Shown here piece by piece: positions 1,495-15,054 of a DNA stretch of 22,254 bases (its first letter is position 1; each line of letters begins with the position of its first letter). Origin of the DNA: a virus (taxonomy: Duplodnaviria; Heunggongvirae; Uroviricota; Caudoviricetes); IMG/VR virus record IMGVR_UViG_2529292906_000020, positions 1-22,254 of that record; one strand, given 5' to 3'. Under the pieces are notes generated by a model. That model saw only the letters and a program-made list of their open reading frames with translations, did no database searches and had not been told where the DNA came from. A program made the position numbers and the translations under genes.

Positions 1495-1505
1495 GTCCAT
1501 AAGAA

Positions 1506-1525
1506 AGCCCCTCCGGAGAGGGGCT
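1506..1525. repeat. Perfect palindromic hairpin AGCCCCTC-CGGA-GAGGGGCT (8-bp stem, 4-nt loop)
   Basis: Perfect inverted repeat read directly; no flanking U-tract on either strand, so not a canonical terminator. Confidence 0.5.
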
Positions 1526-1721
1526 GGAGAGTGGCGCTATGTGCCATTGCATGGTGCCGGGTGCCTCCCGGTGAATTCAGTACCAGCACCTGAATCCGCG
1601 ATTATCCCATATACCTACTCGCTGATTGCCCCTCCGCACAGGGGGATTCACCATGCCAGTTTCTTTTAACAAACTCCCCGCAAAACAGACAACTGTCAAC
1701 CGTCTGAATTGTGAGACATTT

Positions 1722-1747
1722 AAAAAAAAGGCCCGCAAAAGCGAGCC
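1722..1747 (-). terminator. Rho-independent terminator after the tRNA cluster (minus strand)
   Basis: On minus strand GGCUCGC-UUUU-GCGGGCC (7-bp stem with one G.U) followed by U8 (plus A-run 1722-1729). Confidence 0.6.
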
Positions 1748-1761
1748 AGGGAAAATAAGTG

Positions 1762-1838
1762 TGGCGCGTTGTACTGGATTCGAACCAGTGACCGATTGCT
1801 TAGAAGGCAATTGCTCTGTCCGGCTGAGCTAACAACGC
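1762..1838 (-). tRNA. tRNA-Arg (anticodon TCT)
   Basis: Manual cloverleaf: acceptor GCGTTGT/ACAACGC, D-stem GCTC/GAGC, anticodon stem ATTGC/GCAAT with loop CTTCTAA, T-arm ACTGG-TTCGAAT-CCAGT, encoded CCA; 77 nt. Confidence 0.85.
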
Positions 1839-1851
1839 AGGGTACAGATAA

Positions 1852-1928
1852 TGGACCGCCATCGAGGACTCGAACCCCGCGCAACCAGCTTCGAAGGCTG
1901 GCGCTCTATCCTGATGAGCTAATGGCGG
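1852..1928 (-). tRNA. tRNA-Arg (anticodon TCG as read from loop CTTCGAA)
   Basis: Manual cloverleaf: acceptor CCGCCAT/ATGGCGG, D-stem GCTC/GAGC, anticodon stem CCAGC/GCTGG, T-loop TTCGAGT, encoded CCA; 77 nt. Confidence 0.75.
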
Positions 1929-1935
1929 TATGTGA

Positions 1936-2011
1936 TGGTGGCCCTTGCTGGATTTGAACCAGCGACCTGGCGATTATGAGTCGCTCGCTCTCACCACTGA
2001 GCTAAAGGGCC
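1936..2011 (-). tRNA. tRNA with CAT anticodon (Met or lysidine-modified Ile2, ileZ-like in phage context)
   Basis: Manual cloverleaf: acceptor GGCCCTT/AAGGGCC, D-stem GCTC/GAGC, anticodon loop CTCATAA, T-arm GCTGG-TTCAAAT-CCAGC, encoded CCA; 76 nt. Confidence 0.8.
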
Positions 2012-8678: not shown

Positions 8679-9583
8679 GCGGCAACACCTCCGATACGAG
8701 AACGGTAGCTGGGCCAGTTAAACGACAACCAGTTGCGCCCGCCATCGGTGATCCTGTCGGCAATCCGGGGACTGATGAACGCCCACAATTCTTCCGGTGA
8801 AAGGTTGCTGATCAGGATAGTTGGCAAAATACCCTCATACCGGGCATTGATAATTTCCTGCAAAATGGCCATTTCAGCCGCACTGCCAAACTGAACGCCG
8901 ACTTCGTCGACAATCAGCAAATCCAGTGACGCATAATGCTCAATGACGTCATCCGCTGTTTTTTCACTGTCATTCCGCCAGCAGTTTTTCACAGCCCGGG
9001 TAAGGCGCATCACGTCGGTGATCTCCACACTGGCCAGATAGTTACGGATGATGTGTTTTGCCATTGATACCGCCAGATGATTTTTCCCGGTACCGCAACT
9101 GCCGGTCATAACAAGACTGGTACCGTTCTCCAGCATATCTGGCCAGTTCTCCGCATAGCGGCGACAGGCCGCAAGATTTCTGGCTGCGTCAGGATTAACC
9201 TCCAGATAATTATCAAACTCGCAGTCCCGAAAACGCAGAGCAATTCCGGCGTTATCAGTCAGTTCTTCCGCCTTGAGGGACGACAGTTCCATGGTCAAAT
9301 CACTGGCCTCAGCGATCAAGCAGTCAGGGCAGCATGAAATTTTTTCTCTGTCCTCGCCATTACGATCGATCCACACCAGTATATGCGTACGATATTTACC
9401 GTGTTTTTCGCAATATCCGCGACCTTCACGCATCAGGCAGGAACGATAAGGCCATGGCTTTTCGCCCTTCTGAGCAAATGCAATCTCTGCCCGTAACTCA
9501 TCCATTTCTGCCCGTAACTCATCCATTCGCGCCTGTAGTCTTGTTTGTTTCTCACGTTGGTCAATCGTCATCATCGCTGTCAC
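8675..9583 (-). CDS. Helicase loader, DnaC/IstB-like AAA+ ATPase
   Basis: 302 aa; Walker A MTGSCGTGKNHLA and Walker B LLIVDEVG. Confidence 0.8.
   Translation of the reverse strand: MTAMMTIDQREKQTRLQARMDELRAEMDELRAEIAFAQKGEKPWPYRSCLMREGRGYCEKHGKYRTHILVWIDRNGEDREKISCCPDCLIAEASDLTMELSSLKAEELTDNAGIALRFRDCEFDNYLEVNPDAARNLAACRRYAENWPDMLENGTSLVMTGSCGTGKNHLAVSMAKHIIRNYLASVEITDVMRLTRAVKNCWRNDSEKTADDVIEHYASLDLLIVDEVGVQFGSAAEMAILQEIINARYEGILPTILISNLSPEELWAFISPRIADRITDGGRNWLSFNWPSYRSRIGGVAA
9486..9527. repeat. Perfect 21-bp tandem duplication (TCTGCCCGTAACTCATCCATT x2) inside the DnaC-like gene
   Basis: Two identical adjacent 21-mers; in-frame, encoding the duplicated heptapeptide seen as MDELRAEMDELRAE. 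Confidence 0.9.
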
Positions 9584-9584
9584 C

Positions 9585-10577
9585 TCAGAATGTCAATTTG
9601 TTACTGGATTTACCGAATTTGTCAGACATGGCTCCCAGGCCAGCCAGGACATCGACCTGTCGCTGTCGCCCACCTCCGTGAGCGGCTGGCTGTTGCCAGT
9701 AATCTTCGAAGTGACGATCGGGTCCAAAGAACGTCGCAGCCTGCTTCACGAACTGTGTGCCGGTATTTCCTGTAGCACGTACCCAGGCGGCATACCGCTT
9801 CACGCCATCAAGCATGGTCTCCGGTTTTATTCCCTCCCTGATACGGGCTTTCCAGGCTTTGAAGGCTGCTGACTTGGAATTGCCACCAGCACGTTTGGGA
9901 TATTCCTGCCAGGCCTGTTCAAATTCCGGTGAATATTCCTGTCGGGCAGAACGCGCTGGCGCAGACGCGTCAGCGGATGCATCAATAGTGTTTTTAGTCT
10001 CCGTTGTAATCTCTGTAGTAATCTCTGTATTTGTATCAACATTCGGCGTATCCCCTGTTCCGTTATGACGTCGGGGGGTGTTCCGTTTTAACGTAATAGC
10101 TGTATCGCTGATTGCATTATTGCTGTTACTTTCTGGCGAAACAGAAGAAGGTGTGGTGATGGCCGCAATTGCCTGTGGGTTGATCCCGACAAACAAAATA
10201 TTGCTGCATTTCACCCCATCGAGCATTTCCACCGTGCGTAAATCCAGAGTAATAAACCCTGCATCGCGCAGACGCTTCAGCGCATCTGCGGTTTCCCTTT
10301 TCCCGAAACCAAACTGCTCAGCAAACGCCTGGTAGCTTCTTTGCAGTTTGTCGCCCTGAAAACGCTTGCGATATCCCAGCAACGCTCCGGTGTGCTCATC
10401 CCTGACCTCTGTCGGGCGGTACCAGTAAACGATCTCTGAAAGCAGAGCGATAGCCGTCGCATCCGGACGCCCACTGGGTAGTCGAATATATTTCCACCAG
10501 TTCGCAGGTGTAACATTGCCGGAAATATTAATTTGACCAATAGCCATAACTTCCGGTGTGGGGGCGTAACGGCTCAT
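9585..10577 (-). CDS. Replication initiator / replisome organiser (lambda O or P22 gp18 functional analogue)
   Basis: 330 aa; position immediately upstream of DnaC-like/DnaB-like genes; low-complexity linker with internal DNA repeats typical of an origin embedded in the initiator gene. Confidence 0.6.
   Translation of the reverse strand: MSRYAPTPEVMAIGQINISGNVTPANWWKYIRLPSGRPDATAIALLSEIVYWYRPTEVRDEHTGALLGYRKRFQGDKLQRSYQAFAEQFGFGKRETADALKRLRDAGFITLDLRTVEMLDGVKCSNILFVGINPQAIAAITTPSSVSPESNSNNAISDTAITLKRNTPRRHNGTGDTPNVDTNTEITTEITTETKNTIDASADASAPARSARQEYSPEFEQAWQEYPKRAGGNSKSAAFKAWKARIREGIKPETMLDGVKRYAAWVRATGNTGTQFVKQAATFFGPDRHFEDYWQQPAAHGGGRQRQVDVLAGLGAMSDKFGKSSNKLTF
9960..10130. repeat. Iteron-like repeat cluster and A+T-rich stretch (putative phage origin) inside the initiator gene
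   Basis: Perfect 12-bp tandem repeat GTAATCTCTGTA x2 at 10006-10029; two copies of TGTTCCGTT within about 40 bp; followed by A+T-rich sequence. Confidence 0.45.
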
Positions 10578-10873
10578 ACAACCTCCTTCCGCGGCATGAG
10601 AATTGTGTAGCCACGCGCAGGTTGTAGTCTGGCTTTTGCATCAATAGTAAGCGTTGCAATTTTTCGGATATGAAGATAACCAGCTCTTTCCAGTGCCAGG
10701 GTTTCCCTGAATATCGCTTGCTTAGAACAACAGCAGAAATCAGCAAGCACCTGATGATCAATAACTCTCTCGCCTTCACCGTCTGAAGAACCCGACATCA
10801 AAACACGCAACATAATCAGGCGCTGAATCGGGTTATCGAAAGCACATCCGCACACAAACTGAAAACAGTTCAC
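10574..10873 (-). CDS. Small HTH-containing protein (99 aa) in the cII-equivalent position
   Basis: Start overlaps stop of upstream gene; HTH-like segment LADFCCCSKQAIFRETLALERAGYL; assignment is positional. Confidence 0.45.
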   Translation of the reverse strand: MNCFQFVCGCAFDNPIQRLIMLRVLMSGSSDGEGERVIDHQVLADFCCCSKQAIFRETLALERAGYLHIRKIATLTIDAKARLQPARGYTILMPRKEVV

Positions 10874-11094
10874 GCCACACCTCCCAGACGCTTAAACATT
10901 TTTCCAGACAGAAATACCGCCAGAGGGTAACTGATGGTGTAGCTACGCCCCTGTAGTTCGCACACGACTTTCTGGCTTTCAGCGTTGACTAGGCAAACCC
11001 GCAGAACGTGACCGTTGCTGGTGGCGAACCACTGCCCCACACGGGGGCAACGGTTGTATCGGTGATACAGGGAATTAACGATGTGGCGGATCAT
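10870..11094 (-). CDS. Hypothetical phage protein (74 aa)
   Basis: Translationally coupled ORF within the rightward operon. Confidence 0.4.
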   Translation of the reverse strand: MIRHIVNSLYHRYNRCPRVGQWFATSNGHVLRVCLVNAESQKVVCELQGRSYTISYPLAVFLSGKMFKRLGGVA

Positions 11095-11285
11095 GGACGC
11101 ACCTCCACCGTAGTTACGTATTTAACCGGGCTACCTTTCATTGAGATGGTTTCACACATCTCTGCCGCTTTCAGTTCCGCTGTTTTTCTGGATTTATAGC
11201 GACGGTGCCAGACAGATACATCCGTGCGAACTGATACATCGTTTCTGTATTCCGTAGTGGAGATGATGATTTCGTAACTAATCAT
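11091..11285 (-). CDS. Hypothetical phage protein (64 aa)
   Basis: Start overlaps stop of Rha-like gene; coupled operon member. Confidence 0.4.
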   Translation of the reverse strand: MISYEIIISTTEYRNDVSVRTDVSVWHRRYKSRKTAELKAAEMCETISMKGSPVKYVTTVEVRP

Positions 11286-11845
11286 GGGCGAACCTCCTTG
11301 TCAGAACCATTCAGCCTGGAATCAACAAGTGCAGCGCCAAAAACAGCATCACCAACACGGTCGTACAGTTTGCTAGCCAGCGGAGATTCAACGGCCTTAA
11401 GCATTGGATAAAGCTGGCTTGTCCAGATTTGATGGATTTCACGCAAATGCAGGTATACGCCTCTGGCGTTTCGTGCGACAGCTGACATATCAGACGCATC
11501 GGCACCTGATAAACTCTTCTCCATCAGGTTAAAGGCGTTGATGTATGCCTCTTTGAACCGGGCAGCACGTTTACCAGTGAAGCCCATGGCAAGAAACGCA
11601 AAACCGTCGCGGGTGATTTGGTAACAAGGGAGCTTGCGTGTACCACCGTTCGGTTGATTTACCGAAATCGATGTCTCCGCAAAATTGCGGGCACAAAACT
11701 CAGGGGAACAATCCAGAGTGCGGATCTTTTTCAGCACATCGTCATGACGCTTGGAGAAGAAGTTGGCAACAGCCAAAGAAGTGGTAACGGCCTGGCCGTT
11801 GTCAATGGTGATTTCAGGTTGAGTGAGGGCTGGGATCGTAGCCAT
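11282..11845 (-). CDS. Rha-family phage regulatory protein (187 aa from the SD-supported start)
   Basis: ATG at 11845-11843 preceded by GGAGG at 8-nt spacing; ITIDNGQAVTTSLAVANFFSKRHDDVLKKIR...YQITRDGFAFLAMGFTGKRAARFKEAYINAFNLME matches the Rha/Bro-N-like pattern; the in-frame extension to 12145 has no SD. Confidence 0.65.
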   Translation of the reverse strand: MATIPALTQPEITIDNGQAVTTSLAVANFFSKRHDDVLKKIRTLDCSPEFCARNFAETSISVNQPNGGTRKLPCYQITRDGFAFLAMGFTGKRAARFKEAYINAFNLMEKSLSGADASDMSAVARNARGVYLHLREIHQIWTSQLYPMLKAVESPLASKLYDRVGDAVFGAALVDSRLNGSDKEVRP

Positions 11846-12010
11846 GATGGCAGCCTCCGTTGACAGTGAAAAACTTCCACCACCGGAAACGCCAATTTCA
11901 CTGGTGGTGAACTGGACGGGGTTGGCGTAACCGGCGTCAACGGAGACCGGCGCACCTTTCGGTGCCCCCGCCCAGCCCACCATAATCTGGATGTGAGCAA
12001 ATGCGGACGA

Positions 12011-12031
12011 TAAAAAAGACGCTGACGCGTC
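12011..12031 (-). terminator. Weak Rho-independent terminator (tR1-like) in the leader between the 235-aa gene and the Rha gene
   Basis: Minus strand GACGC-GUCA-GCGUC followed by UUUUUUA. Confidence 0.35.
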
Positions 12032-12168
12032 ATACATCGCCGTTGACAATTTCAGGACGCCAATCCCGGCACCCGCTTTATAAGGTGCGGAGACAGTGTA
12101 ACGTCCCGAAATTGCAGAATCAATATTTGGTCTTGAAATGATCATATAGCTGCTGATATCTTTAGAAC

Positions 12169-12255
12169 TGTTCTTGGATGTTTCGGAGCCGTTTTATGCG
12201 AAACAGCTCCCCGTTATTGATGTTGAGTGAGCCGGGTTACTCCCGGCTTTTTTTC
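12169..12255 (+). ncRNA. Candidate small antisense RNA (lambda oop-like), about 85 nt, two hairpins ending in a Rho-independent terminator
   Basis: Plus-strand -35 TTGAAA (12133-12138), 18-bp spacer, -10 TATCTT (12157-12162); hairpin GGAGCCGTTT/AAACAGCTCC; terminal hairpin AGCCGGG-TTACT-CCCGGCT plus T7 abutting the stop of the convergent 235-aa gene; no plus-strand CDS here. Confidence 0.4.
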
Positions 12256-12961
12256 ATCGCTGCCAACCAATAACCTGAAATAACCCCATTTTCGGGTGAT
12301 ACCAGCGAGTCCCTCGCGGTTCTGCTTCCTCCATAACCCGATAAAAAGCAGCCATAAACGGTTCCACAGCAACAATTGCGCGACGTGACAACAATCCGTC
12401 CGGCGTCATGAACTCATGTGTGTCTGTAGGAATTTGATAGGCGTTCACCAGATTGCGGCATTTATCATCTGACAAACCGGTTTTTGCTTTCAGTTGGCGA
12501 TATCCGGCATAGCCCTCACGAATAGTGCCCTTTTTAATTTGCTCGACTGTTTCAGCAACGTGGCTGACTTTTTCTTCCACCTGAGTGATCCGTTTCTGTT
12601 GGCGAACGGCTTCAAGAGCCATCGCGGCAACCATTTCGATTTCGCTCATTGGCTTACGGATCTGTTCTTCCAGTTCGCGCCAGCGATCTACCAGGCGAGC
12701 TGTGAATTCAGGACAGAGCTGTGCGACGACAATGATGCTGTCGCGCTTACCTCGTTCACCTTCGAATACATACGCGCTAGAAAATCGGCGAGGCCCAAGT
12801 GATTGTTTATTCTCAATTTCCACAGTCTGTGGAAATTGGATGATTCCCTTTTTAGCCAGTGTTTCAATAGTTCTCTTAACACTATCTGGTCGGCTTCCCA
12901 CCAACTCTGCGATCTCAACGCTGGTCATGGATGCTTTGCCGTTAAAAATTGCGGTGTTCAT
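12254..12961 (-). CDS. Phage regulatory protein with Rha/ORF6N-like winged-helix N-terminal domain (235 aa)
   Basis: AGGAGA 7 nt upstream of ATG; N-terminus MTSVEIAELVGSRPDSVKRTIETLAKKGII resembles Rha/ORF6N DNA-binding domains. Confidence 0.5.
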   Translation of the reverse strand: MNTAIFNGKASMTSVEIAELVGSRPDSVKRTIETLAKKGIIQFPQTVEIENKQSLGPRRFSSAYVFEGERGKRDSIIVVAQLCPEFTARLVDRWRELEEQIRKPMSEIEMVAAMALEAVRQQKRITQVEEKVSHVAETVEQIKKGTIREGYAGYRQLKAKTGLSDDKCRNLVNAYQIPTDTHEFMTPDGLLSRRAIVAVEPFMAAFYRVMEEAEPRGTRWYHPKMGLFQVIGWQR

Positions 12962-13185
12962 TGTTGGTCTCCTGTGGGCTTGTCATCTTCTGTATTCGCT
13001 AGACTTGGGTGTGTATATGGAATGCTCGGATCCAGATGACAAAGAATGGCAACATCCTCCGGAACACCTCGCGTTTTCCACTTTCCAACACCTTGACTGC
13101 CACGAGGCCTTCCTTTCTTTGGGAACCTGCGACCAATAGCGGCATTGGTTTTAAATTGAATTTTTAATATTTCATAAAGGGTCAT
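12958..13185 (-). CDS. Possible small basic protein (75 aa) in the cro position; uncertain
   Basis: Stop overlaps ATG of the 235-aa gene (ATGA); start lies about 30 nt downstream of the predicted pR -10; weak SD and several rare codons; no clear HTH. Confidence 0.3.
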   Translation of the reverse strand: MTLYEILKIQFKTNAAIGRRFPKKGRPRGSQGVGKWKTRGVPEDVAILCHLDPSIPYTHPSLANTEDDKPTGDQQ

Positions 13186-13199
13186 TCTTTAGTCTCACG

Positions 13200-13280
13200 C
13201 CAGATACTTTGTTATCCAACGATGTTAACCACAGGAACCCAAAGTATCAAGAAATTCTGTTACTTTAGTATCAACAGCCA
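13200..13280. promoter_or_regulatory. Divergent immunity promoter/operator region (pR-like leftward, pRM-like rightward, three operator-like repeats)
   Basis: Repeats GATACTTTGTTATC (13203-13216), CAAAGTATCAAG (13239-13250), TACTTTAGTATC (13261-13272); minus-strand -35 TTGATA (13245-13250) and -10 TAACAT (13222-13227); plus-strand -10 TAGTAT (13266-13271). Confidence 0.55.
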
Positions 13281-13296
13281 TGAGAGGAGAAGAAAA

Positions 13297-13953
13297 ATGA
13301 AGTCTTTAGGTGAACGTCTCATCAACGCACGGCAAAAAGCTGGGTTAACACAAGATGCGTTGGCTAAAAAAGCTGGGGTCACCAGAGTTGCAATAAGTAA
13401 AGCCGAGCAAGGCCTTACAAAAAGTTTCAACGGTGACACCCTTTTTAAAGTTGCAGCTGCACTGCGGTGTTCACCGCAGTGGCTTCAGAACGGAGATGAA
13501 AAAGATAAGCATTGGGAAAATAATGTTAAGAGCTGCCCACAGAGAGACACAGCACACTCTTACCCTGTAATTAACTGGGTTCAGGCAGGATTATTCGCAA
13601 CTTCTGGTGATGACTACAACATGTATGATCAGGATAATTGGAGGCATTCTGTAAAATACGCTGGTGAGAGGGGGTTCTGGCTGGAAGTGCACGGAGACTC
13701 AATGACTTCGCCCGTAGGAATAACATTTCCTGAAGGAATGTCGATCCTTGTCAACCCAGATAAAGAAGTTTTTTCAGGGTGTTACGTCATCGCCAGAAAA
13801 AAATCCACCAATGAAGCAACATTCAAAAAATATATTTCTGACATGGGAAAGGCGTTTCTAAAGCCCCTTAATCCACAATATCCAATCATAGAAATGGACA
13901 ATGATTGCGAAATAGTAGGTGTTGTGGTTGATGCCAGATGGGATATTTTCTGA
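13297..13953 (+). CDS. CI-like prophage repressor (HTH-XRE N-terminal domain plus S24/LexA-type autopeptidase C-terminal domain)
   Basis: ATG at 13297 with GAGGAGA at 7-nt spacing; HTH LTQDALAKKAGVTRVAISKAEQG; S24 signature GDSM plus downstream Lys. Confidence 0.85.
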   Translation: MKSLGERLINARQKAGLTQDALAKKAGVTRVAISKAEQGLTKSFNGDTLFKVAAALRCSPQWLQNGDEKDKHWENNVKSCPQRDTAHSYPVINWVQAGLFATSGDDYNMYDQDNWRHSVKYAGERGFWLEVHGDSMTSPVGITFPEGMSILVNPDKEVFSGCYVIARKKSTNEATFKKYISDMGKAFLKPLNPQYPIIEMDNDCEIVGVVVDARWDIF

Positions 13954-13974
13954 CCAGACACAAAACACAAAAAG

Positions 13975-14055
13975 AAACCAAAGTATCAAAAATCACTTGC
14001 TACGCCTTGATACCTTAGTTACCATAAAACAAAGTTCGTAACTGAGGTATCATCT
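13975..14055 (+). promoter_or_regulatory. OL/pL-like operator-promoter region downstream of the repressor gene
   Basis: Operator-like copies CAAAGTATCAAA (13979-13990), TTGATACC (14007-14014), AGGTATCAT (14045-14053) sharing the AAAGTATC/GATACTTT motif of the OR region; candidate -35 TTGCTA / -10 TACCAT. Confidence 0.45.
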
Positions 14056-14056
14056 C

Positions 14057-14560
14057 ATGATCAATAAAGCTACAACTCTTGACTGTCTCGAAGAACTGAA
14101 AAACCTCGGCAGCCTCATTACACTAATAGCAAAAGCAACACCTGATGCTACGCTCTCTAGCGATATAGAGTCATGCGCAGGACTGGCATGGGATATGACA
14201 AATAGCATATCCAGAAAGCTATCGTCAGCAATGCTTTTACAGAACAAAAATTCTGCAATCAACAACCGTCTTCGCACCCAACGCGAAGCCTGCGGCTTAA
14301 CAACCGCCGAACTCGCCAGGCTGCTCGATCTCGATGAAGAAATTATCATCCAGTGGGAGAGCGGAGAGTATGAACCAACTATCAGTATGCTTATCCCACT
14401 GGCAAATATTCTTGGCTGCGATGCGATGTGGCTGTTAACTGGTGAGGTTACTCCTCCGGAGCAACCAAAAAGTGAGGAGCAGCAACACCATGACGCATCT
14501 CAACAAGTTTGCCCCTTATCTCGCGAAGCTCTTCTACGGAAGAACCAATACCAATGGTGA
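14057..14560 (+). CDS. HTH-XRE DNA-binding protein with about 67-aa N-terminal extension (167 aa), first gene of the early-left operon
   Basis: GAGGT 8 nt upstream of ATG; HTH AINNRLRTQREACGLTTAELARLLDLDEEIIIQWESGEYEPTISMLIPLANILGCDAMWLL. Confidence 0.7.
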   Translation: MINKATTLDCLEELKNLGSLITLIAKATPDATLSSDIESCAGLAWDMTNSISRKLSSAMLLQNKNSAINNRLRTQREACGLTTAELARLLDLDEEIIIQWESGEYEPTISMLIPLANILGCDAMWLLTGEVTPPEQPKSEEQQHHDASQQVCPLSREALLRKNQYQW

Positions 14561-14688
14561 CATAATCGCCGCTTCGCCCCTCAAGGTACATGCGAACATT
14601 TTTATCAATCATTGCGGAAACAGTCTTAATATGAAAACACTTCTGAGACTCGCTATATAGCAGAACATATAAGTCAGCTGAGGAAACC

Positions 14689-15054
14689 ATGAAAAAGTTC
14701 GAAAACATAACTGTTCTCCATGTTGATGACTTTGATTATACAAACCCGGAACTTCTCCCGGAGGTTGTAAAGGCAATAGATGTTGCCGATATAGTGATTA
14801 GAGAAAAGAGAATTGTCAAAAACAGGCTCGTATGCACTTCAGGAGCAATGACAGAAACAACCTCACAGCAAGATAATTACGAAGGCATTTGCCTGGAGCC
14901 TGATTCATTTGCGGTAAATGTTTATCATTTATTGCATGCAACACAGGTATTACATATGTCCAGTAATCACGAAACGAAAACACTCGGCAGCGAAATTCTG
15001 AGTTTTGCATGTGAGTATACAAAAGCTGCTGCCGAAAAAGAATTAGCGCAATAA
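14689..15054 (+). CDS. Hypothetical early protein (121 aa)
   Basis: GAGGAA SD before ATG; no recognisable motif. Confidence 0.6.
   Translation: MKKFENITVLHVDDFDYTNPELLPEVVKAIDVADIVIREKRIVKNRLVCTSGAMTETTSQQDNYEGICLEPDSFAVNVYHLLHATQVLHMSSNHETKTLGSEILSFACEYTKAAAEKELAQ

Follow-up and report, generated by a model that had tools for sequence, protein, structure and literature searches.

A complete promoter-hairpin-terminator unit was identified on the plus strand of the analysed lambda-like prophage DNA, between a roi-like antirepressor gene and an isrK-C4-anrP module, and it could be confirmed as real and well beyond chance. The window, i.e., the whole stretch of DNA that was analysed, comprises 22,254 bases, and 85 non-coding bases lie between the best promoter with an extended −10 and the strongest terminator that this 22-kb region contains. 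With about even probability, the unit represents an unannotated small RNA gene of ~85 nt on the plus strand, which would be cis-antisense to early transcripts reading through between the roi-like gene and IsrK-C4-AnrP. What could be shown directly is that the sequence elements exist, that they are statistically rare and that three diverged types have kept them. The initial annotation had interpreted the site as an oop-like antisense small RNA, which is partly supported by the results described below.

The unit is located in a non-coding gap of 108 bp (12146-12253) between two ORFs of the minus strand, 12961-12254 (235 aa) and 12145-11282 (287 aa). The features of the locus are as follows:

12254-12961, minus strand: convergent roi/antirepressor-like gene of 235 aa (ORF list, Pfam, PHROGs)
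12133-12138, plus strand: −35 hexamer TTGAAA of the candidate promoter P(+) (promoter scan)
12154-12162, plus strand: extended −10 of P(+), TG-A-TATCTT, with TG at 12154-12155 and TATCTT at 12157-12162 (promoter scan)
12167-12170, plus strand: predicted transcription start, 5-8 nt past the −10, deduced from promoter geometry only
12170-12179, plus strand: conserved, seed-like 5′ block GTTCTTGGAT, the same in all three types
12185-12210, plus strand: hairpin 1, GGAGC-C-GTTTT / GAAAC-A-GCTCC, an interrupted stem of 10 bp (predicted fold)
12222-12254, plus strand: conserved linker GTTGAG, then the terminator
12230-12236 (AGCCGGG), loop TTACT, 12242-12248 (CCCGGCT) and 12248-12254 (T7), plus strand: intrinsic terminator (scan and sequence)
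12095-12123, minus strand: putative isrK promoter, TTGATT at 12123-12118, 17 nt, TACACT at 12100-12095 (read from the sequence)
12012-12088, minus strand: isrK small RNA gene (Rfam RF01394, 61.6 bits at a gathering score of 50)
11900-11987, minus strand: C4-type antisense RNA, orf45/STnc1160 region of Gifsy-1 (RF01695, 81.4 bits at a gathering score of 45)
11282-11845, minus strand: antirepressor gene with a Rha domain, anrP-like (its GGAGG-N8-ATG at 11845 shares the frame of the 287-aa ORF)

Promoter, terminator and predicted fold

The sigma-70 promoter TTGAAA-18-TATCTT that had been proposed for the plus strand is present at 12133-12162 with a spacer of 18 nt between the two hexamers, and the TG of an extended −10 was additionally found. 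P(+) is the sole site on either strand of the 22,254-base window that combines a match of at least 9/12 with an extended −10 (TGn). Taken alone, its hexamer match is ordinary, as the scan returned 26 matches of at least 9/12 in the whole window and nine in the region 9000-15000, where 7.7 were expected. The chance that any such site falls at the appropriate place before a given terminator, within an upstream interval of 50 nt, is ~3% when calculated from the global density and 13% when calculated from shuffled local AT-rich sequence; if the TG is required, it drops to ~0.1-1%. The distance from P(+) to the terminator stem is 68 nt. Weak points of the promoter are the −10, which matches in only 4/6 positions, the spacer of 18 nt and the modest overall match of 9/12.

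The Rho-independent terminator AGCCGGG-TTACT-CCCGGCT with its T7 was found as the initial annotation had described it, and the scan returned it as GAGCCGGG-TTACT-CCCGGCTT, followed by T's. Under strict criteria (a perfect stem of at least 7 bp with at least five G-C pairs, and at least six T within 2 nt) it is the only terminator on either strand of the window, and none was obtained in 100 shuffles. The T-run also abuts the stop codon of the convergent 235-aa gene, with one base shared: TCA at 12254-12256 is the TGA stop of this minus-strand gene, and the last T of T7 is its first base. The terminator is specific for the plus strand, since on the minus strand the hairpin is preceded by A7 and followed by CACUCAAC, which is no U-tract. 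In the relatives described below its stem is invariant, whereas the loop is variable and the T-run comprises 6-8 residues.

These properties are also compatible with an explanation that needs no functional RNA and which is considered unlikely here. The hairpin and the T-run would insulate against stray antisense transcription that originates on the divergent, AT-rich side of the isrK promoter, thereby keeping it out of the roi-like and cro-position genes and the operator region, and the transcript of 85 nt would arise only as a by-product. In addition, the 3′ end of the roi-like mRNA may be protected by this GC hairpin, the stem of which forms equally on the minus-strand RNA. In favour of insulation, the terminator is by far the strongest feature of the unit and adjoins the stop codon exactly, and the promoter match is modest.

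The internal 10-bp hairpin that had been noted was recovered at 12185-12210. The RNA from 12169 to 12256 (88 nt) folds with −28.8 kcal/mol (z = −3.5), and none of 200 shuffled sequences was as stable. The predicted RNA has a length of 83-89 nt with a 3′ end at 12252-12255. The block GTTCTTGGAT lies 5-14 nt after the −10 and is unpaired up to position 8 in the predicted centroid fold. Of 19 distinct sequences, 18 have the unpaired 5′ end, GUUCUUGGAU, without any change, the exception (L116) reading GGCT.

Distribution and the three sequence types

The window shares 99.8% identity with a prophage of E. coli. A segment of 143 bp comprising the module was found in 223 of 5426 complete E. coli genomes (~4%), in 204 at an identity of at least 95% and in 19 at ~70%, and furthermore in nine phage records, among them Stx2a- and Stx2d-converting phages. 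The hosts include O145, O111, O55:H7, O157 and ST131 strains, for example O55:H7 RM12579, O145:H28 RM13516 and the ST131 isolate Ecol_AZ146, and the phages PhiR49_2 and ASU11 carry the module as well. The order of roi-like gene, module and isrK promoter is constant, whereas the adjacent cro/cI cassettes differ between records. Viral contigs and metagenomes were searched by pattern scans, and genome contigs by means of the roi-like protein. The viral and genome loci yielded 27 distinct module sequences, to which the metagenome loci added only minor variants. All of them belong to three types, A (the window), B and C, all originating from E. coli-type prophages, and no more divergent relatives were detected in the viral contigs, metagenomes and genome contigs.

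The types are ~70% identical in the middle, and their flanks are nearly invariant. Every type has kept CTTGAAA, the 18-nt spacer, TGnTAT(C/T)TT and GTTCTTGGAT, and furthermore a hairpin, GTTGAG and the AGCCGGG/CCCGGCT stem with T6-8. The scan called the same promoter and terminator in one type B and one type C locus. Among 19 distinct variants of the three types, the −35 columns T16, T17, G18, A20 and A21 are invariant and A19 is nearly so, while the TG and TAT-TT of the extended −10 are invariant in all three types. By our own count on the alignment, 13/14 promoter-element columns are conserved compared to 8/16 spacer columns. The conservation of the −35 is not independent evidence, because this hexamer is situated at the margin of the isrK-promoter block, which is highly conserved.

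The arms of hairpin 1 differ on both sides between the types, and complementarity is retained: GGAGC.GUUU / AAAC.GCUCC in type A, GGC..ACUUC / GAAGU.GCC in type B and GGC.CUGC / GCAG..GCC in type C. The energies of these hairpins range from −10 to −12 kcal/mol, and 0.4-5% of shuffles are as stable. From a MAFFT alignment, RNAalifold returned no structure other than the terminator; as the alignment does not bring hairpin 1 of the three types into register, the types were folded one by one. The compensated arms and the invariant 10-nt block are left unexplained if the unit serves insulation only, and so is the retention of an extended −10 promoter in three diverged types, the simpler route to insulation being the loss of the promoter.

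The strand on which the hairpins act cannot be read from single substitutions. Three variants keep the pairing as G-U on the plus-strand RNA (GAGGU in type B, AGCUGGG in the L109 terminator and GUC in L197), whereas in two variants of type A, GGAAC and CAGAGC, the pairing is preserved on the minus-strand RNA only. As these single-transition variants, three for plus and two for minus, are uninformative, the strand assignment rests on the T-run and the promoter. It was considered that the element acts on the early transcript of the minus strand, as a nut-like site, as a site for RNase processing or stabilisation, or as a leader for the ORF starting at 12145, with P(+) being fortuitous. Overall, such a function seems highly improbable. 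In phage lambda, nutR lies in the first non-coding gap of the PR operon, and a nut-type idea is natural for the locus analysed here because its gap is likewise the first non-coding one of a PR-type operon, the genes for the 75-aa and 235-aa proteins overlapping. It also agrees with a minus-strand function that the type A hairpin, besides the two variants pairing only there, is more stable on this strand (−15.1 compared to −11.8 kcal/mol), that the minus-strand RNA of types B and C reads CGCUCAAC, loosely like boxA CGCUCUUA, and that the ATG at 12145 is conserved in all types. However, this ATG lacks a Shine-Dalgarno sequence, neither hairpin is followed by a U-tract on the minus strand, and the T6-8 run serves no purpose there. 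Pfam and PHROGs revealed no N-like antiterminator among the left-operon ORFs, both hairpins are single-copy in the window, without a nutL-like second copy of boxA/boxB, and the hairpin loop varies in sequence and length within a type, unlike boxB. A nut site was rejected on these grounds.

The absence of a protein gene from the plus strand, as claimed before, could be corroborated: the sole ORF there codes for 31 aa (12178-12273), crosses the terminator, and its frame is not conserved in the other types. A tiny peptide of ~25 aa starting in the loop of hairpin 1 is hardly credible and was rejected, as the frames are unconserved and read through the terminator. The idea arises from the start codons AUG, GUG and AUG in the hairpin-1 loops of types A, B and C, which share one frame relative to the conserved TTG-AGY-GAG-CCG-GGT. 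In type A, GGAG precedes the start by 7 nt, and in the stretch shared by types A and B three of five codon differences are synonymous by our own reading. In contrast, all differences between types B and C are non-synonymous, and both types lack a Shine-Dalgarno sequence. The C-terminus is shifted by the length of the T-run (6-8) and by a 1-nt loop indel. The stop codon lies 15-20 nt past the T-run, so terminated transcripts would be non-stop.

In other isrK phages, homology to the window ends at the −35 of isrK, and the slot upstream of this promoter is occupied by a co-directional ORF of ~60 aa without hairpin or T-run. This ORF, MQxLNRWFRDGRG..VHVIRWEPET..CFSPLW.., was observed in L103 (1517-1710), L104, L105 and L107. 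Judged from their position, the module and the ~60-aa ORF are alternative cassettes at one junction. With such a swappable slot, the module behaves as an independent insert with its own promoter and terminator. In E. coli ETEC4090 (L240, 397-1443), an insertion sequence carrying an 'integrase core domain' gene is located between the ash/isrK side and the module, and this insertion has not separated the module from the roi-like gene. In Yersinia, Providencia, Proteus and Atlantibacter, the genes for distant homologues of the 235-aa protein are directly followed by an overlapping gene; no hairpin after the gene, no isrK and no C4 were found there.

The isrK-C4-anrP neighbourhood and the predicted mode of action

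The 235-aa protein shows weak Rha/HTH matches in Pfam and matches PHROG 63, 'anti-repressor Ant' (E = 3e-46), and in phage PhiR49_2 it is annotated as 'Roi'. The initial annotation had taken its gene for the first regulator of the rightward operon. This had to be corrected, since the rightward-type operon begins with a 75-aa gene in cro position and the overlapping 235-aa gene is the second one. Beyond the 75-aa gene, a divergent repressor of the LexA/S24 type is encoded. No operator shared with the cI/cro region was detected in the module, the repeats being at chance level only. Within the coding sequence of the roi-like gene, a perfect 12+1+12 palindrome, CAATTTCCACAG-T-CTGTGGAAATTG, was observed at 12814-12838, which looks like an intragenic protein operator. 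Roi of phage HK022 reportedly binds a site in its own gene.

The left neighbour of the module is an isrK-C4-anrP antirepressor module, which was absent from the initial annotation. An isrK-orf45-anrP antirepressor locus has been described for the Gifsy-1 prophage, and the same layout is found here; in S. dysenteriae, orf45 is fused to anrP, resulting in 287 aa (PMC4825925). The 'Rha-like gene' of the initial annotation could be retained only in part: Pfam places the Phage_pRha domain on aa 121-210 of the 287-aa ORF starting at 12145, whereas the first third of this ORF consists of the isrK and C4 RNA genes. The isrK terminator is located at 12031-12018 (minus strand). In the same part of the ORF (aa 16-111; 11812-12145, minus strand), a Pfam 'Phage_ASH' match coincides with isrK, C4 and the isrK promoter, and relatives of the 287-aa ORF are called 'ash family protein' by PGAP. 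Conserved RNA genes, when translated, may account for most of the Ash family. In current genome annotations, the module region carries either nothing or a questionable 'ash family' ORF start.

The distance between the roi-like gene and the isrK promoter is 130 bp. As the start of isrK was placed at the first position of the Rfam model (12088), P(+) and the putative isrK promoter would be arranged back-to-back, with −35 hexamers 9 bp and starts ~81 bp apart. By our own count, the isrK promoter scores 8/12, which is below P(+) with 9/12 plus TG. The block containing it is nearly invariant among the relatives.

Transcription itself and every step of the following mechanism are inferred. P(+), a sigma-70 promoter with an extended −10, would start the RNA near 12167-12170, and the terminator would end it at 12252-12255. 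The product would comprise the unpaired 5′ end GUUCUUGGAU, one stem-loop, a short linker and the terminator hairpin with a U7 tail. Because P(+) is located outside the repressor-controlled operator region, the candidate RNA is probably made in lysogens, too. Its target would be the early-right (PR-type) transcript, reading from the roi-like gene into isrK-C4-anrP. As the RNA is fully complementary to the spacer of this read-through transcript, a cis-antisense action is suggested, which may proceed by duplex formation with RNase III-type cleavage, in addition to convergent transcription. The read-through expression of the flanking genes would be uncoupled or down-tuned this way, as by lambda oop or P22 sar. 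The terminator would also block antisense transcription through the roi and cro-position genes towards cI.

The invariant 5′ block, the variable stem-loop with kept pairing and the invariant terminator with a U6-8 tail resemble the conservation pattern that is classic for seed-type small RNAs, namely an invariant 5′ block, a variable paired stem-loop and an invariant U-tailed terminator. A cis-antisense RNA needs no such 5′ block, and its conservation therefore hints at a target in trans or a DNA site. It is rather unlikely that the RNA is made but mainly acts in trans, as an Hfq-type, moron-like small RNA whose GUUCUUGGAU pairs with host or phage mRNAs and whose antisense position is incidental. 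The candidate does have its own promoter and terminator, and it matches the Hfq-dependent seed-type class in the U6-8 tail of all variants and in the conserved seed, unpaired in the predicted fold. Furthermore, it adjoins IsrK, which is a known Hfq-binding small RNA (PMC4825925). However, no trans targets above chance were found within the 22-kb window, where the best non-self duplex (−18.4 kcal/mol) compares to a mean best of −19.2 kcal/mol for shuffled seeds and the seed complement has three near-matches at 2.8 expected. The 5′ block could equally be a site at the DNA level, ~81-94 bp upstream of the isrK start.

A decidedly doubtful reading is that the candidate is a third regulatory RNA of the IsrK-C4-AnrP switch, which would gate the antirepressor read-through or contact IsrK, or else reprogram host mRNAs by its 5′ seed. 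It would be expressed in the lysogen from a promoter sharing its upstream region with the isrK promoter. If true, the threshold at which prophages are induced, Stx2a phages and ST131 prophages among them, would be set by this third RNA. A contact with IsrK would involve the hairpin-1 loops, which in all three types (12196-12198 in the window; L002 and L110 for types B and C) contain the motif UUU(U)RUG despite wholly different stems; this motif shows partial complementarity to AUAAAG, the invariant loop sequence of hairpin 1 of IsrK (12074-12079, minus strand). No covariation of the module type with IsrK variants was found, as hairpin 1 of IsrK does not vary and its hairpin 2 assorts independently of the type.

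On one side of the module lies the immunity switch with cI and the cro-position gene, on the other an antirepressor module under the control of RNAs. An antisense RNA at this position could tune prophage induction and therefore the release of Shiga toxin, and it could add a layer to the IsrK/C4 circuit. To our knowledge, this circuit has been studied only in Gifsy-1, which does not carry the module.

Two further loci of the window were noted apart from this region. At its left end, a match to the STnc100 small RNA (139 bits) is located together with three tRNA genes (1495-2011, minus strand). An ALIL frameshifting pseudoknot (121.5 bits; 20021-20137, plus strand) was detected between ORFs of 108 aa and 296 aa (19740-20953), a locus that is interpreted as an insertion sequence of the IS3 family, located in the prophage's left arm.

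Comparison with known systems

The lambda oop RNA has a length of 77 nt, is transcribed from the promoter pO and is antisense to cII, inside which it acts by RNase III cleavage. The proposal that the geometry of the locus mirrors oop holds for the architecture and the convergent orientation, but not for sequence homology, the cII/O context or the overlap with a coding sequence. Like oop, the candidate would be a short non-coding RNA with its own, here predicted, promoter, directed against the early-right operon. It occupies the gap downstream of an early regulator and has two hairpins in ~80-90 nt, an intrinsic terminator and a 3′ end meeting a convergent regulator gene. With ~77 nt, oop has a 5′ stem-loop and a terminator and is made from its own constitutive promoter; the predicted RNA of 83-89 nt, with hairpin 1, the terminator and P(+), matches this arrangement in its architecture. 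An oop homologue was rejected, since in a global alignment to lambda oop (z = 2.7 against shuffles) the matches are confined to the GC stem and the T-run.

Whereas oop is located between cII and O, with pO inside the start of O, the candidate lies between the roi/Ant-like gene and isrK-C4-anrP, and the replication genes follow more than 1.5 kb further on. In lambda, oop (38675-38599) reaches across the cII stop (38653) and overlaps the cII coding sequence by 55 nt. The candidate, in contrast, shares only one to three bases with the coding sequence of the roi-like gene, within the stop codon 12254-12256. Because of this small overlap, the mode of action of oop is not directly transferable, and an effect on the roi-like gene would need to involve its 3′ end.

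Rfam 15 contains no oop-type covariance model, and the lambda oop region gives noise only. At gathering scores, the Rfam scan of the window identified only the neighbouring isrK and C4 close to the candidate and no family for 12133-12256. In a permissive scan of 12060-12320, the best sub-threshold match was sroD (24.5 bits at a gathering score of 50), which covers the terminator only, and the sar family gave no match up to E = 10. A literature search by topic and by exact sequence strings returned no description of this candidate RNA.

P22 sar, a functional analogue, is a small RNA antisense to an antirepressor operon and has its own promoter and an intrinsic terminator (for a review, see PMC12197685). 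Whereas sar covers the ribosome-binding site of ant, the candidate is located upstream of the isrK promoter and covers no antirepressor ribosome-binding site.

IsrK and C4 (P1 immI-type) resemble the candidate as structured small RNAs with an intrinsic terminator in the same prophage regulatory locus. The candidate differs from them in its opposite strand and in having no sequence similarity to them, and it is not part of the isrK-orf45-anrP unit as described. The isrK unit of Gifsy-1 has antQ as its upstream neighbour, and no such RNA has been described there (PMC4825925). Many isrK phages do not carry the module. The candidate finally resembles the 'moron' small RNA genes of prophages, being a promoter-to-terminator insert that is present or absent among otherwise similar phages.
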